This document shows positions 19,164 through 29,539 of a stretch of 34,566 nucleotides of DNA, piece by piece. The translations under genes and the position numbers were made by a program. This stretch comes from a virus. The notes under the pieces are model-generated. The model had not been told where the DNA came from. It did not search any database and worked only from the letters and a program-made list of their open reading frames with translations. The first letter of the stretch is position 1. Each line of letters begins with the position of its first letter. The stretch is from the IMG/VR virus record IMGVR_UViG_3300019487_000022, positions 89,241 through 123,806 of that record; one strand, 5' to 3'.

Positions 19164-19293
19164 TGGGACAGGCGGGATTCGAACCCTAACAGTATTGCTA
19201 CTGTAGCTGACAGTTCATGTGTTCGCGACGGGACATGCTGTCAACGCATCTGTCGATTAGAGGTCTCTATCGGCTTACTTAGCCCACTGTCCC
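19164..19293 (-). ncRNA. 130-nt tRNA-like RNA with a 59-nt structured insertion in the T-stem
   Basis: Acceptor GGGACAG/CTGTCCC-A; D-like GGCT/AGCC; GCG-[insert]-GG-TTCGAAT-CC-CGC; no canonical anticodon arm. Confidence 0.75.
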
Positions 19294-19295
19294 AA

Positions 19296-19370
19296 TACGC
19301 CCGAGGGGATTTGAACCCCTAAGCATCTCCTTCTAAGGGAGATAGGTTTGCCAATTTCCGTCACAGGCGT
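19296..19370 (-). tRNA. tRNA with TAG anticodon (Leu), short variable loop
   Basis: ACGCCTG/CGGGCGT-A; TCTCC-CTTAGAA-GGAGA; 5-nt variable region; AGGGG-TTCAAAT-CCCCT. Confidence 0.88.
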
Positions 19371-22418: not shown

Positions 22419-23441
22419 TCAACTAAAATCATTATCATCTGGCGCATGTTTCGGATTAATTAACTTAAGAGCCAAACGAAACTTTGTTGTTGAATAACGA
22501 GGAATTAGTGGAGTTACAACAACACCTTCTTTTATATGTAACGAATTGCCACTGATATTTTCTTTTCCTTCTCTTAAAGGACGAATTTTATTGATATCAA
22601 ATGGACCTTCATATAAAACAGGCACCCAAAGCTTCCGTAAATCTTCAGGAATTTCTGAAAATGGTAAAGTCCTACCTTCAACATCAATCCTGAAAATAAA
22701 TATAGTTTTCTTTTTTAAACCGTAGTTGTATCCTTTATGAAAAGGAACGACCTCACCAAATGCTTGAGTATTTACACTAGGAAAATGTTTTTCCAAAAGA
22801 TCAAAGAGTCCAGAATCATTAGCTACAATACGATACGCAACATCTGCTTCATCAGCAAAAAATTGATCGTTATCAAGTAATCCTTTTGATGTAACTAACC
22901 TTTTACCATCTGCTAGTTTGACATACACACCTTGAGTACCATGAATTTTCTCTGTAACTTGTACATGTTCACCCTCTACAAATTCATTAGGATAAATATT
23001 GTAAGTTTCAACTTCGTGCTTATGAATATCTGTACCAATTGTTTCAAGAGAAAATACCTCTCCAACCAATTCATCTGGAATTGGAGCTATATATCGCGTT
23101 ATCCCTAACCTAGCAGAAATATCTTCACCTAATGGAACATCCACTAATGCAGGAATATCATCAAGAATAATTCCCTGAGTCAGCTCTTTTTGCATAACCA
23201 GGGCTTTAACACGATTCTTTTCAGGACCAACTAAGTATTTACGGCGATCCCCTTCATCAGCAATTGCATCTGGTAAAACGGATTTTTCAGGAACAAAAAT
23301 TACAATGCTCTCGTTCTTGAAAATTCCTTTACCAACGACCACCTGATATTGCCCCACTTTACCTAGTTCCAATCTCAAAACCTCTGGATTAGGGTGAGGA
23401 AATAACTGTATCTTTTCTCTTGTAACTTTCCACTGTGCCAT
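22419..23441 (-). CDS. ATP-dependent RNA ligase, DRB0094/Rnl2-like
   Basis: N-terminal tRNA-binding-type domain (HPN...LEL...YQVVV.KG); motif I TEKIHGT, FGEV, EGVVV, KLIN. Confidence 0.9.
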   Translation of the reverse strand: MAQWKVTREKIQLFPHPNPEVLRLELGKVGQYQVVVGKGIFKNESIVIFVPEKSVLPDAIADEGDRRKYLVGPEKNRVKALVMQKELTQGIILDDIPALVDVPLGEDISARLGITRYIAPIPDELVGEVFSLETIGTDIHKHEVETYNIYPNEFVEGEHVQVTEKIHGTQGVYVKLADGKRLVTSKGLLDNDQFFADEADVAYRIVANDSGLFDLLEKHFPSVNTQAFGEVVPFHKGYNYGLKKKTIFIFRIDVEGRTLPFSEIPEDLRKLWVPVLYEGPFDINKIRPLREGKENISGNSLHIKEGVVVTPLIPRYSTTKFRLALKLINPKHAPDDNDFS

Positions 23442-23468: not shown

Positions 23469-23981
23469 CTATTTTAACATTGTTTGCATTACAGGATTGC
23501 AATACGCACGTCTCCAAAAATCTAATGTTTCTTCTCCAACCTGAGAGACATTCGCTCTTGCAACTATTTCAGCTTCGCTATAAAAAACAAAAGATTCTTT
23601 TCTCAATCCAAATAATCTTAAACTTCTAATGATTCGCGTAATACGTAATAAATTATGATTGCGAAAAGCACACCAAGATTGTTTATCTACATTCCAATGA
23701 TTACCTATTCCATAAAATAAACGAAATCTCTCAAGACAACTTAAAATATTAGTTGTGGCTTTATCTGAACTTTGAAGAATTTTTATATCTTCTTCTGTTA
23801 AAACAGGCCCATTAAAATTATGCCGTGAAGTCTCATGCAAAGGGAATAGCCATTGAATCCAAGTATGACTTTTTTCAAGATCCCAATCAGAACTGTTAAT
23901 CATCTGTTTTAAAGTTATGCCTTCATCATTTGGTAAATCATTAATATAGAAGTCTAAAATTTTTGATGTATATTTAGTCAT
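23469..23981 (-). CDS. opioid growth factor receptor (OGFr)-like domain protein
   Basis: LE-x-x-H-x-WIQWLFPL and NHNLLRITRIIRSL motifs. Confidence 0.85.
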   Translation of the reverse strand: MTKYTSKILDFYINDLPNDEGITLKQMINSSDWDLEKSHTWIQWLFPLHETSRHNFNGPVLTEEDIKILQSSDKATTNILSCLERFRLFYGIGNHWNVDKQSWCAFRNHNLLRITRIIRSLRLFGLRKESFVFYSEAEIVARANVSQVGEETLDFWRRAYCNPVMQTMLK

Positions 23982-25883: not shown

Positions 25884-25893
25884 ATATAAACAG

Positions 25894-25983
25894 CGGTGGG
25901 AGTCAGAGTCGAACTGACACACCATCTTTTCGACGATGAACACCTTTCCAAGATGTTTGACTTACCAATGTGCAAATCCCACC
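25894..25983 (-). tRNA. tRNA-Ser(GGA)
   Basis: GGTGGGA/TCCCACC-G; ACATC-TTGGAAA-GGTGT; long variable arm. Confidence 0.9.
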
Positions 25984-26020: not shown

Positions 26021-26106
26021 TGGATGATGGAGGAGTTGAACCACTTGCCTGTCCGCCCGATTTAATTAGGCAACCGGGTTACAGCCGGTCATCGGGAACA
26101 TCATCC
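26021..26106 (-). ncRNA. D-armless tRNA-like RNA with GTA anticodon and a 9-nt T-stem insertion
   Basis: GGATGAT/ATCATCC-A; ACCGG-CTGTAAC-CCGGT; CCCGAT/ATCGGG helix replaces the D-arm; GGA-[CAGGCAAGT]-GG-TTCAACT-CC-TCC. Confidence 0.75.
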
Positions 26107-26109
26107 GTA

Positions 26110-26183
26110 AGGCTATGTAGGGAGTCGAACCCTAAATGTCGCGAGATTTGCAGTCAAGCCGCTTGCCACTTGCATACATAACC
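26110..26183 (-). tRNA. tRNA-Cys(GCA), two mismatches in the anticodon stem
   Basis: GGTTATG/CATAGCC-U73; loop CTGCAAA; TAGGG-TTCGACT-CCCTA. Confidence 0.82.
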
Positions 26184-26218
26184 ATAGGCATCTATTCAGT
26201 TTTCAAAGAACTCACAAG

Positions 26219-26301
26219 AGACTGGGGTGAGATTCGAACTCACGTTGTCTTTCGACAGTCGCTTTGCAGGCGACCCCATTTGTCCACTCTGGCACCCAGT
26301 C
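26219..26301 (-). tRNA. tRNA-Cys(GCA) with long variable arm
   Basis: GACTGGG/CCCAGTC-U73; GTCGC-CTGCAAA-GCGAC; variable hairpin TGTC-GAAA-GACA. Confidence 0.9.
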
Positions 26302-26373: not shown

Positions 26374-26985
26374 ATGAAAACATCGTGTTCAGACTGCAAT
26401 AATACCTTTGATAAAAAATCTTATGAAATTAAACGCACTAAATATCATTTTTGTTCTCTTAAATGTTGGTCAAATTTTCAAAATAAGAAAAAACCAACTA
26501 AAATTAAAGTAACATGTGCAACTTGTGGTTTTAACTTTTTTAAAATTCCAGCAGAGATCTCTAAAACTGGTAATTCTTTTTGTAACCGTTCTTGCGCTGT
26601 TGTGTTTAATAACCGTAAAAAACGTAAAAGCAGACGTTCTAAAGCAGAAAAAATGCTTTTTGATTTATTAAATAAATCTTTTCCTAACCTTCCTATTCTT
26701 GCAAACGACAAATCATTATTAGATGGTTTAGAAATTGACATAGCTTTTCCTAGTCTTAAACTTGGCATAGAATGGAATGGTATAGTCCATTTTAAACCAA
26801 TTTTTGGTACACAAAAATTTCTAAAAATTCAACACAACGATATCAGAAAACAAAAAATAGCGTTTGAAAAAGGCATTCACTTAATTGTTGTGCCAGATCT
26901 TGTTTCTACTAAATCCTATGTTGAGGACGCTGCAATGAGCATCAAACAGATCATAACATCTCTGCTTGATAAACCGGAGAGGTAA
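26374..26985 (+). CDS. free-standing endonuclease: Cys-rich zinc-binding repeats + DUF559/Vsr-like PD-(D/E)xK domain
   Basis: CxxC...FCSxxC repeated twice; S-x-x-E, LEIDIAFP-x3-LGIEWNG-x-x-H; antisense to the tRNA array. Confidence 0.8.
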   Translation: MKTSCSDCNNTFDKKSYEIKRTKYHFCSLKCWSNFQNKKKPTKIKVTCATCGFNFFKIPAEISKTGNSFCNRSCAVVFNNRKKRKSRRSKAEKMLFDLLNKSFPNLPILANDKSLLDGLEIDIAFPSLKLGIEWNGIVHFKPIFGTQKFLKIQHNDIRKQKIAFEKGIHLIVVPDLVSTKSYVEDAAMSIKQIITSLLDKPER

Positions 26986-27060
26986 TAGAATCGAACTATC
27001 AACGTTTTACCGTCAGCCGAGTGTTCAAAACTCGTTGGGAACCGTTTCCCGCTACCCTCC
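26975..27060 (-). tRNA. tRNA-Ser(TGA), non-canonical (tRNA-Sec-like D-arm, bulged acceptor)
   Basis: GGAG-GGT(A)/(T)ACC-T-CTCC-G; D-arm GGGAA-ACGG-TTCCC; CGAGT-TTTGAAC-ACTCG; long variable arm. Confidence 0.8.
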
Positions 27061-27709: not shown

Positions 27710-27712
27710 AAG

Positions 27713-27796
27713 TGCGCCGGACAGGATTCGAACCTGTGAACCCATTAGGGATCTGTTTTACAGACAGACTGCTTTAAGCCACTTGCATACCGACGC
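27713..27796 (-). tRNA. tRNA-Tyr(GTA)
   Basis: GCGTCGG/CCGGCGC-A; TCTGT-CTGTAAA-ACAGA; long variable arm. Confidence 0.93.
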
Positions 27797-28457: not shown

Positions 28458-28558
28458 TATTCTTATGTCATCAGTTCTCTGGAGATTCCTTCAACAAATT
28501 CACAAAATTTATTGAAAATAAAGTTTAAACCTTATTTTATCACATAAAACCGATAAAA

Positions 28559-29539
28559 TCAAGCAACAGCAATAAATTTAGACAAATTTATAATTTCACA
28601 TCTATAAGGGCTACCAGATGCTGCCATTACAGCGTTTATTTCATCCACATGTAAATGAACAGCTAATCCTTTGCCTGGACCCCCGTTTGCAGACCTTAAT
28701 AACGTGACAACAACAGGATCATAATCTATATAAGATAGAACTGGATTGCCTGAATCAAGGTTTACAACGTCTTCATAAAATGGCATTCTTGGACCAAAAG
28801 GTTGAATCATTGTTGTACTTTTATCATAAGGTCCACGTAAAGCTCTAATATTAGATATCAGAGCTTTTTCTTCTTGATCTGTAACTAGAACAGGAAAACC
28901 AGATGCTAGTTTATCAATATATTTTTCGCAATCAGCAGGAAGAATTTTCGCATGTTTAATGGATGTTGGAACATCATTAGCAAAATATCCTATTCTAAAA
29001 TCTGAAAAGCCAACTCGCCAACTGTTAATTTGAGTAGCGTCAATAACTTCGTCATTTTCAGTAATAAATCTAATATCGCATGGAGGCCAGATGGCATAAT
29101 GTTCTGTGTATAATATATGCCTTGGAGAAATTAATACGCCTCCACCGCCAAATCCATATTTGGAGTTATAAGGACTAATACAAGTTTTATTCAACGAAGC
29201 TGCCCAACAGGATTTATTTCTTTTATATATCTTCTTAGCATGATCCTGAACTTCATATATTAATTTATGAGAAGCATTTTTACCGACGATAAGTTTATCA
29301 ATGATATTCGTTGTATTCTGACGTACCGTTTCTTTAGGTATATTTGGCTGGGGTTTGTTATAGTTGCTAGCTAATATGCTTAAGTCTGCAAGATCTACAT
29401 CTCCGTCACCATCAAAATCTCCTTGTTCCCAAGAAGCCCCTGTTTTTTTTCCGTAATTGGAAGAAAGTTTACCTAAATCAGTGAGATCTACGTCTCCATC
29501 ACGATCAGCGTCACCTGGTACTGGTTTATCTTCGGGCAT
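28559..29539 (-). CDS. dockerin-like (EF-hand repeat) domain fused to a trypsin-like serine protease domain
   Basis: GDADRDGDVDLTDL...W-x-x-GDFDGDGDVDLADL; GVLISPRHILYTEH, D, LDSGNP (GDSG variant). Confidence 0.8.
   Translation of the reverse strand: MPEDKPVPGDADRDGDVDLTDLGKLSSNYGKKTGASWEQGDFDGDGDVDLADLSILASNYNKPQPNIPKETVRQNTTNIIDKLIVGKNASHKLIYEVQDHAKKIYKRNKSCWAASLNKTCISPYNSKYGFGGGGVLISPRHILYTEHYAIWPPCDIRFITENDEVIDATQINSWRVGFSDFRIGYFANDVPTSIKHAKILPADCEKYIDKLASGFPVLVTDQEEKALISNIRALRGPYDKSTTMIQPFGPRMPFYEDVVNLDSGNPVLSYIDYDPVVVTLLRSANGGPGKGLAVHLHVDEINAVMAASGSPYRCEIINLSKFIAVA

Follow-up and report, generated by a model that had tools for sequence, protein, structure and literature searches.

Bacterial transfer RNAs (tRNAs) are described in textbooks and recent papers as cloverleaves: a 2024 paper counts all known bacterial tRNAs as such (PMC11551756), and neither phages nor pseudoknots come up in a 2020 review of non-canonical tRNAs. 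Some departures from the standard proportions are nevertheless tolerated in translation. tRNAs whose acceptor branch is split into 8 and 4 base pairs (bp), the (8/4) tRNAs, occur and work in bacteria and phages (PMC5389517), and the ribosomes and EF-Tu of E. coli accept a tRNA without a D arm (PMC11551756). For tyrosine, the bacterial identity determinants are the first pair G1-C72, the discriminator base A73, the anticodon and a long variable arm (PMC9976931). Tyrosine tRNA (tRNA-Tyr) is also a target of bacterial defence, as Septu and the PtuAB proteins of retron-Eco7 cleave it in the variable arm; phage tRNA-Tyr genes counter these systems, and that of phage T5 counters cleavage through a distinctive variable loop (PMC13096335, PMC11555353). 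Here we describe a gene of 86 nucleotides (nt) at positions 26021..26106, minus strand, of a 34,566-nt stretch of the IMG/VR virus record IMGVR_UViG_3300019487_000022 (the whole stretch is called the window below). This gene is an intact member of a family of tRNA-Tyr that lack the D hairpin and have a pseudoknotted core.

A probable tRNA-Tyr gene with a pseudoknotted core

The gene runs from its first acceptor base at 26106 to the discriminator A73 at 26021. Its acceptor stem has 8 bp, all of them Watson-Crick (5' strand 26099..26106, 3' strand 26022-26029, which together with the discriminator A spans 26021..26029). A UU linker (26097..26098) follows at the place of tRNA nucleotides 8-9. The next strand, CCCGAU (26091..26096), continues directly into the anticodon stem, and the 9 nt from acceptor stem to anticodon stem form no local hairpin, meaning that the D hairpin is absent. 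CCCGAU instead makes six Watson-Crick pairs out of six with AUCGGG (26056..26061), a strand located inside the variable loop; we refer to this pairing as the D-like helix. The anticodon arm (26072..26090) consists of a 6-bp stem, closed by a G·U pair (26090/26072), and the 7-nt loop CUGUAAC, which holds the anticodon GUA at 26080-26082.

The remaining parts of the fold lie on the 3' side of the anticodon arm. The variable-arm stem is formed by GCCU (26068..26071) and AGGC (26047..26050), and between its 5' strand and the D-like helix there is an A/U-rich linker (26062..26067), which in the alignment of the family is A/T-rich and about 6-16 nt long. Immediately 3' of the D-like helix stands a YGG motif (Y, pyrimidine), here CGG (26053..26055). 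The T arm (26030..26044) carries the loop UUCAACU on a stem of four positions, GUGG/CCUC, one of which is an internal U·U. Because the variable-arm stem crosses the D-like helix, the fold is a pseudoknot. The acceptor and T stems make a stack of 8 bp plus 4 positions, that is 12 layers, as in normal tRNAs.

A sequence-only reading of this locus had anticipated much of this architecture. The perfect acceptor stem that it reported is there, with 8 bp rather than 7, as is the perfect GTA anticodon arm; the replacement of the D arm by CCCGAT paired with ATCGGG is correct, and this helix covaries in the family (see below); and the second complementarity that it saw as producing a pseudoknot is confirmed as GCCT 26068-26071 with AGGC 26047-26050. 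Its view of the T arm does not stand. It took the T stem to be split after the third pair by a 9-nt insertion, where we find an 8-bp acceptor stem and a 4-bp T stem. The GGA/TCC helix that this view calls for is only 65% paired in the family and is incompatible with the eighth acceptor pair, which covaries. What looked like an insertion contains AGGC, which belongs to the variable stem as its 3' strand, and the GGA is the YGG motif plus spacer.

In three dimensions, the D-like helix could be stacked on the anticodon stem, much like the D stem of a normal tRNA, to give a continuous arm of 12 bp. The strand connectivity of the D-like helix would be reversed relative to a normal D stem, with its far end flanked by the UU linker and YGG. 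The YGG motif probably touches the T loop, replacing the G18-G19 contacts of the elbow.

The helices covary in a large family

Relatives were collected with degenerate patterns on the anticodon loop and the T loop, followed by a script filter that demanded only an 8-bp acceptor stem; pairing in the D-like helix played no part in choosing them. The resulting counts are lower bounds, and the frequencies given below hold among the matches listed. We found at least 75 distinct relatives in viral contigs and at least 44 in bacterial genome contigs, the latter sitting in long tRNA arrays, mostly of Planctomycetota; pooled, there are at least 131 distinct GUA sequences. In 88 of the 108 pattern matches having the acceptor stem, the anticodon loop begins exactly 22 nt from the 5' end, and there is therefore no room for a D arm. 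The gene in the window has the same geometry (8-bp acceptor stem, exactly two linker bases, 22-nt offset of the anticodon loop), with base pairing kept at only 49-74% identity to the relatives.

For covariation we aligned 76 sequences, the candidate and 75 viral relatives. Across the 8 bp of the acceptor stem 99.8% of the alignment cells are paired, with double changes at all 8 pairs; the corresponding values are 98.9% and 6 of 6 pairs for the anticodon stem. The two helices that have no counterpart in a cloverleaf behave similarly: the 6-bp D-like helix is paired in 97.1% of cells with double changes at 5 of 6 pairs, and the 3 core pairs of the variable stem are paired in 100% of cells with double changes at 2 of 3. 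In the T stem 83.9% of the cells at the four positions are paired, with double changes at 2 of 4 and the inner two G-C pairs invariant. Where the candidate has CCCGAU/AUCGGG in the D-like helix, relatives have, for example, CUCUAC/GUAGAG, CCACAC/GUGUGG or CCCUGC/GCAGGG, and within the GSC/GSC core of the variable stem (S, G or C) a C-G pair is swapped to G-C in 15 of 76 sequences. None of 500 shuffles matched the observed pairing values, and when the partners were slid by 1-3 columns pairing fell to 38-56%. A mutual-information scan blind to structure, run on 132 sequences, recovered the same helices among its top 20 pairs. The sequence-only reading had named a lack of compensatory changes in homologues as the mark of a decaying pseudogene; such changes are present in both new helices.

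The boundaries of the helices are also visible in this alignment. The eighth acceptor pair (8-78 in RNA numbering) shows 23 double changes and is unpaired in none of the sequences. Pair 17-35, the sixth of the anticodon stem, covaries as G·U, U-A, A-U or C-G. We considered extending the variable stem by the base after the anticodon stem, and rejected this extension as that base covaries with the base preceding the stem, as the sixth anticodon-stem pair. Outside the helices, the linker is T at its second position in 117/132 sequences and at its first in 108/132, and the two G of YGG are kept in 127/132 and 131/132. The pyrimidine of YGG (RNA position 52, window position 26055) matches T-loop nucleotide 59 (RNA position 72, window position 26035), being T/T in 88 and C/C in 31 of 132 sequences, and the two rank 14th in the blind scan; this match may reflect a tertiary contact or shared ancestry.

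Membership of the gene in the family was assessed with a covariance model, R1, built from the 75 relatives with the candidate left out. R1 matched the candidate over its full length (model positions 1-86) with 80.4 bits (E 8e-21). Among the other tRNAs of the window the canonical tRNA-Tyr scored 21.9 bits and the rest lower. A bacterial member outside the training set scored 96.8 bits, and canonical tRNAs at most 30 bits. The candidate keeps every invariant position of the family, including CGG, A73 and CUGUAAC (CUGUAAM in the family; M, A or C), and differs from the nearest subclade by a compensatory change from U-A to G-C in the D-like helix. The suggestion that a family of remodelled tRNAs exists was thus right, without the second RNA that the sequence-only reading had placed in it. 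This second RNA (19164-19293, minus strand) is tRNA-like and 130 nt long; it has a T loop, and its 7-bp acceptor stem is perfect. With filters off, R1 finds in it only a 13-nt T-loop fragment (19174-19186, 7.7 bits), and the T-stem insertion point that the two were thought to have in common does not hold up.

Other routes to relatives gave little. An exact 28-nt word search of viral contigs returned nothing, as did the search for relatives via the neighbouring RNA ligase gene. When the candidate was compared by BLAST with 50,697 cultured-phage records, the only hits were T-arm matches at chance level (E 3) in Felix O1-like phages, and BLAST of a typical family member in cultured phages returned nothing. 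The T arm of the candidate recurs in at least 17 other phage or metagenome contigs. The same T arm is present in an unannotated tRNA-like stretch of Salmonella phage SP116 (NC_027329.1, about 28543-28630; L002:1440-1527 in our contig set), located between the tRNA-Arg and tRNA-Leu of Felix O1-like phages and having an anticodon-type loop of apparently 9 nt. This stretch was considered as a family member and set aside, being unmatched by R1.

The family very probably serves as tRNA-Tyr

The arrays in which the family resides point to its function. We examined 58 arrays (39 viral and 19 bacterial) that carry tRNAs for at least 10 amino-acid types beside a family member. ARAGORN detects no tRNA-Tyr in any of the 58, whereas tRNAs for each of the other amino acids occur in 37-95% of them. 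In several arrays with more than 30 genes, tyrosine is the one amino acid missing. The family thus appears to occupy the tyrosine slot of otherwise well-stocked arrays.

The sequences of the family members point in the same direction. All 131 relatives have A73, and 74 of 76 sequences have the pair G1-C72. The candidate itself shows each determinant of bacterial tyrosine identity: the long variable arm, G34-U35-A36, A73 and G1-C72. Among the 131 relatives, 83 (63%) carry an encoded CCA, as compared with 1 in 64 expected by chance. In a scan blind to the anticodon, with the motifs of the variable loop and T arm fixed, GUA was found in 52 of 56 sequences having the family geometry, the other four having UCU. 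On these grounds the knotted family very probably works as tRNA-Tyr.

Under this reading, the usual tRNA-processing enzymes would probably excise the RNA from the array transcript, after which CCA would be added. The host tyrosyl-tRNA synthetase (TyrRS) probably charges it through G1-C72, A73 and the anticodon, and the charged RNA probably reads UAY codons. Taken together, we consider it likely that this is an intact non-cloverleaf tRNA-Tyr gene whose product is processed, charged with tyrosine and used to read UAY.

The bacterial relatives raise the idea that the knotted form is the native housekeeping tRNA-Tyr of Planctomycetota. We rejected it, as the examined bacterial copies sit in long accessory arrays or beside other tRNA genes. 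One contig of a Planctomycetota metagenome-assembled genome that carries a knotted gene (L252) also has the usual Thr-Tyr-Gly-Thr cluster. In this contig (L252:68-706) the knotted Tyr gene stands at the head of a short Leu-Leu-Ser-Cys-Ser block, which echoes the Leu/Ser/Tyr/Cys-only block of the window.

Several unusual tRNAs were seen in the course of these scans. In five viral contigs (L353, L386, L390, L400 and L402) there are tRNA-like genes, 81-87 nt long, that have a UCU (Arg) anticodon loop and no D hairpin and whose variable loop and YGG follow a design similar to that of the Tyr family; the geometry of the Tyr family is matched exactly by another four UCU sequences. The arrays of relatives (L443:3310-3385, L450 and L453; L143, L439 and L293) include a tRNA for which the anticodon was called as the four bases ctct, perhaps one of the frameshift type, as well as CUA (amber-reading) tRNAs labelled Pyl by ARAGORN.

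A canonical tRNA-Tyr in the same array

The window also encodes a canonical cloverleaf tRNA-Tyr(GUA) (27712..27796, minus strand), called by ARAGORN and scoring 53.7 bits with the Rfam tRNA model. It lies in the same array, 1.6 kb upstream of the knotted gene. Such coexistence was rare in our first sample, where a canonical tRNA-Tyr stood beside the knotted gene at 3 of 131 loci. In the subclade of the candidate, recognized by its GUGG/CCUC T arm, 15 distinct contigs have the downstream flank covered; a canonical tRNA-Tyr is present in 7 of them, within 10-250 nt of the knotted gene, and there is none in the other 8. Contigs L441 and L442, for example, have nearly identical knotted genes, and only one of the two has a canonical tRNA-Tyr. 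In the contigs of this subclade the knotted gene is therefore the constant partner, and the canonical gene comes and goes. We also considered that the two genes are inherited as one pair; this was rejected, as the canonical partners are just 61-73% identical to the canonical gene of the window. In two of the contigs the canonical tRNA-Tyr beside the knotted gene (L439:4407-4493 and L445:4733-4819, numbered with the knotted gene on the plus strand) has an unusual T loop, UGCGAGU or UGCAAGU rather than UUCRANY (R, purine; N, any base).

This coexistence, together with the defence systems that cut tRNA-Tyr, raises the possibility that the two genes differ in their sensitivity to nucleases. A knotted tRNA would stay usable while a defence nuclease hits the D or variable arm of the ordinary tRNA-Tyr. 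By analogy with the phage tRNA-Tyr genes known to counter Septu and retron-Eco7, we tentatively suggest, as the likeliest reason for carrying both, that the knotted gene could be a structurally different, nuclease-resistant backup beside the canonical tRNA-Tyr. A broader proposal, on which we remain doubtful, is that bacterial-type ribosomes, EF-Tu and TyrRS routinely use an elongator tRNA with a pseudoknotted core, and that phages, the present one included, might keep it beside or in place of the ordinary tRNA-Tyr because its rebuilt D and variable arms make it invisible to, or impossible to cut by, tRNA-Tyr nucleases of the Septu or retron PtuAB type, which attack the variable arm.

Alternative explanations

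A number of observations speak against a working, nuclease-resistant tRNA-Tyr. The minimum-energy structure of the candidate under the nearest-neighbour model (-29.0 kcal/mol) is a different, non-tRNA fold, while the two nested halves of the proposed fold come to -24.9 and -22.5 kcal/mol and the folding z-score is -1.9; single-sequence thermodynamics is indecisive here, neither supporting nor excluding the knotted fold. The T stem is weak, with its internal U·U in the candidate and an outer pair that is mismatched in about half of the family. The candidate does not encode CCA; an encoded CCA is also missing from the canonical tRNA-Tyr of the window, the sole other gene checked for it. The phage already has a canonical tRNA-Tyr, so that the knotted gene is not needed to complete the set. 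Conservation of the anticodon and T loops was, for most relatives, partly built in by the search patterns, one scan being blind to the anticodon. Finally, the idea of nuclease resistance, plausible as it is, is an argument by analogy.

Some of these points would fit a non-decoding look-alike, that is, a stable RNA that soaks up a nuclease, its sensor or TyrRS and thereby shields the real tRNA-Tyr, itself staying off the ribosome. The weak T stem and the canonical tRNA-Tyr found in the window and in 7 of the 15 subclade contigs are in line with such a role, a decoy for a nuclease directed at the anticodon or variable arm would likewise conserve the anticodon loop, and phage tRNA-Tyr, when overexpressed, gives host tRNA-Tyr partial protection from Septu (PMC13096335). 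A decoy has difficulty, however, in explaining why the family provides the sole tyrosine-type gene in 58 arrays with at least 10 amino-acid types, and why it retains G1-C72, A73, the encoded CCA (63%) and the acceptor/T arm of 12 layers that EF-Tu requires. Moreover, a decoy for a nuclease that recognizes the normal D or variable arm should retain these arms and not rebuild them. We therefore regard a decoy as unlikely. The sequence-only reading had proposed two functions, a decoy or a resistant substitute for tRNA-Tyr; the decoy is the weaker of the two because the tyrosine slot is filled in otherwise complete arrays and the identity set is kept.

A second alternative holds that the gene encodes a working GUA tRNA charged with another amino acid, such as serine or leucine via the long variable arm, which would recode UAY. 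The variable arm, an aid to the discrimination of the class II tRNAs for Ser, Leu and Tyr (PMC9976931), is drastically rebuilt in the knotted form, and (8/4) allo-tRNAs accept serine (PMC5389517). The window moreover holds tRNAs that blur identities: its tRNA-Leu(UAG) lacks the long variable arm, and one of its tRNA-Cys possesses such an arm. Recoding is nonetheless very improbable in our view, since A73 and G1-C72 constitute the tyrosine set. Bacterial tRNA-Ser usually has G73, which counts against serine. The arrays that carry the family have no other Tyr tRNA yet have full Ser and Leu sets, and misreading of all tyrosine codons would be highly deleterious.

We give equally little credence to a regulatory or processing element, acting in cis or in trans, that borrows the ends of a tRNA, for example as an entry site for RNase P or RNase Z. 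The gene is tightly embedded among tRNA genes, starting 3 nt after a tRNA-Cys, as such an element might be. However, a processing signal needs neither the conserved anticodon loop nor the discriminator base, nor the CCA encoded in other members, and the family is found at many different positions of unrelated arrays.

The last alternative, a decaying class II tRNA-Tyr pseudogene that lost its D arm and whose two helices are chance complementarity, could draw on the silence of standard tRNA finders and Rfam, on the intact canonical copy 1.6 kb away, on the modest z-score and on the fact that a single 6-bp complement in 86 nt is not rare, but it is refuted because the new helices covary across at least 131 relatives of fixed geometry, with all invariant family positions and 80.4 bits on R1 in the candidate, and because identities of only 49-74% with pairing preserved exclude recent copies of one sequence; its probability is negligible.

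Genomic context and detection by standard tools

The source record is 123.8 kb long with an estimated completeness of 26%, and the window is its final 34.6 kb. Given this record size and completeness, the carrier is a very large phage ("giant cave phage"). ARAGORN finds 14 other tRNA genes on the minus strand alongside the knotted gene, which is flanked by a tRNA-Cys (26110-26183), across the 3-nt gap mentioned above, and a tRNA-Ser (25893-25983). No open reading frame of at least 80 amino acids overlaps 26021-26106. Just downstream of the tRNA block, and adjoining it, is an RNA ligase gene (22419-23441, minus strand; PF09414, E 7e-14), and an OGFr_N-like gene (23469-23981, minus strand) is also located just downstream of the block. 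The RNA ligase may have a tRNA repair function. No TyrRS gene is present on the record, which covers about 26% of the phage genome, so that its absence there is uninformative.

Standard tools do not see the knotted gene. ARAGORN returned nothing at 26021-26106 in its standard, intron and mitochondrial modes, and the 44 candidates that the mitochondrial mode (-mt) lists in the record include none at this gene. Rfam, at E values up to 10, gave no RF00005 match at 26021-26106, the gathering threshold of 29 bits not being reached. Membership in the canonical cloverleaf family RF00005 was accordingly rejected, there being no D hairpin and no detection by Rfam or ARAGORN. A D-armless tRNA of the mitochondrial type was ruled out as well, by the length of 86 nt, the long variable arm and the lack of a call in -mt mode.

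Other tRNAs of the window, all on the minus strand, are unusual in different ways. A tRNA-Ser(UGA)-like gene of 85 nt (26976-27060) has a 5-bp T stem and an acceptor stem paired at 6 of 7 positions; it was missed by standard ARAGORN and Rfam, and listed only by the mitochondrial mode of ARAGORN and by our acceptor/T-arm script. A tRNA-Cys(GCA) of 84 nt (26218-26301) has a long variable arm, the adjacent tRNA-Cys being normal with 74 nt, and the tRNA-Leu(UAG) (19296-19370) is just 75 nt long and has no long arm. The class I and class II body types thus look exchanged between this tRNA-Cys and this tRNA-Leu.

Implications

Full-text literature searches found no description of a pseudoknotted tRNA-Tyr without a D hairpin, and this large family of non-cloverleaf tyrosine tRNAs has apparently been undescribed so far. 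Outside organelles, a tRNA-Tyr that is widespread, conserved and built around a pseudoknot would be the first natural departure from the cloverleaf. It would also expose an annotation gap: if standard finders miss a real decoder, many phage and bacterial arrays are wrongly scored as having no tyrosine tRNA. The knotted tRNA-Tyr could further offer a ready-made orthogonal scaffold for genetic-code engineering. For the phage itself, having tyrosine tRNAs of two different shapes could insure against tRNA-cutting defences. Such an insurance is a reasonable suggestion by analogy, because Septu and retron-Eco7 cut tRNA-Tyr, phage tRNA-Tyr counters them, and an RNA ligase gene adjoins the array.

Comparison with known systems

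The closest described relative is the canonical class II tRNA-Tyr(GUA). Both carry G1-C72, A73, a long variable arm and a 7-nt anticodon loop in which GUA is accompanied by U33 and A37; both have a TTCRANY-type T loop and 12 layers in the acceptor/T stack, and both are found in tRNA arrays. The knotted form differs in having no D hairpin, its D-like helix arising where the stretch that follows the acceptor stem pairs with part of the variable loop. Its connectivity is consequently reversed, and it has acceptor and T stems of 8/4 rather than 7/5 and a 6-bp anticodon stem.

With the (8/4) tRNAs and allo-tRNAs (Mukai et al. 2017, PMC5389517) the family shares the 12-bp acceptor branch split 8/4, the occurrence in phage tRNA clusters, the long variable arm and the D-type helix of 6 bp that is also known from relatives of tRNA-Sec. 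These tRNAs, in contrast, are cloverleaves with a normal D hairpin that belong to Ser, His, Cys and Sec and not to Tyr, and no pseudoknot is mentioned for them. Mitochondrial tRNAs that lack a D arm, such as the metazoan tRNA-Ser(AGY), and the engineered 'mini HisT' of E. coli (PMC4013460, PMC11551756) likewise have no D hairpin and are used, or usable, in translation. They are shortened, with a simple replacement loop and without a long variable arm, whereas the knotted form has class II length and rebuilds the D helix through the pseudoknot.

The tRNA-Tyr of phages T5 and T6 (PMC11555353, PMC13096335) are, like the gene described here, phage-borne and located in a tRNA-rich region, and their variable arm is where the nuclease cleaves and is also said to be responsible for the resistance of the T5 tRNA-Tyr. 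Unlike the knotted form, they are cloverleaves. Finally, the tRNA-like structures at the ends of plant-virus genomes (those of turnip yellow mosaic virus and brome mosaic virus, the latter a tRNA-like structure for tyrosine; PMC9976931) are also pseudoknotted RNAs that present identity elements for tyrosine, or for valine or histidine. They form the 3' ends of viral genomes, carry the pseudoknot in the acceptor arm and do not decode, in contrast to the knotted tRNA-Tyr, which is a free-standing gene of a tRNA array with an ordinary acceptor stem.

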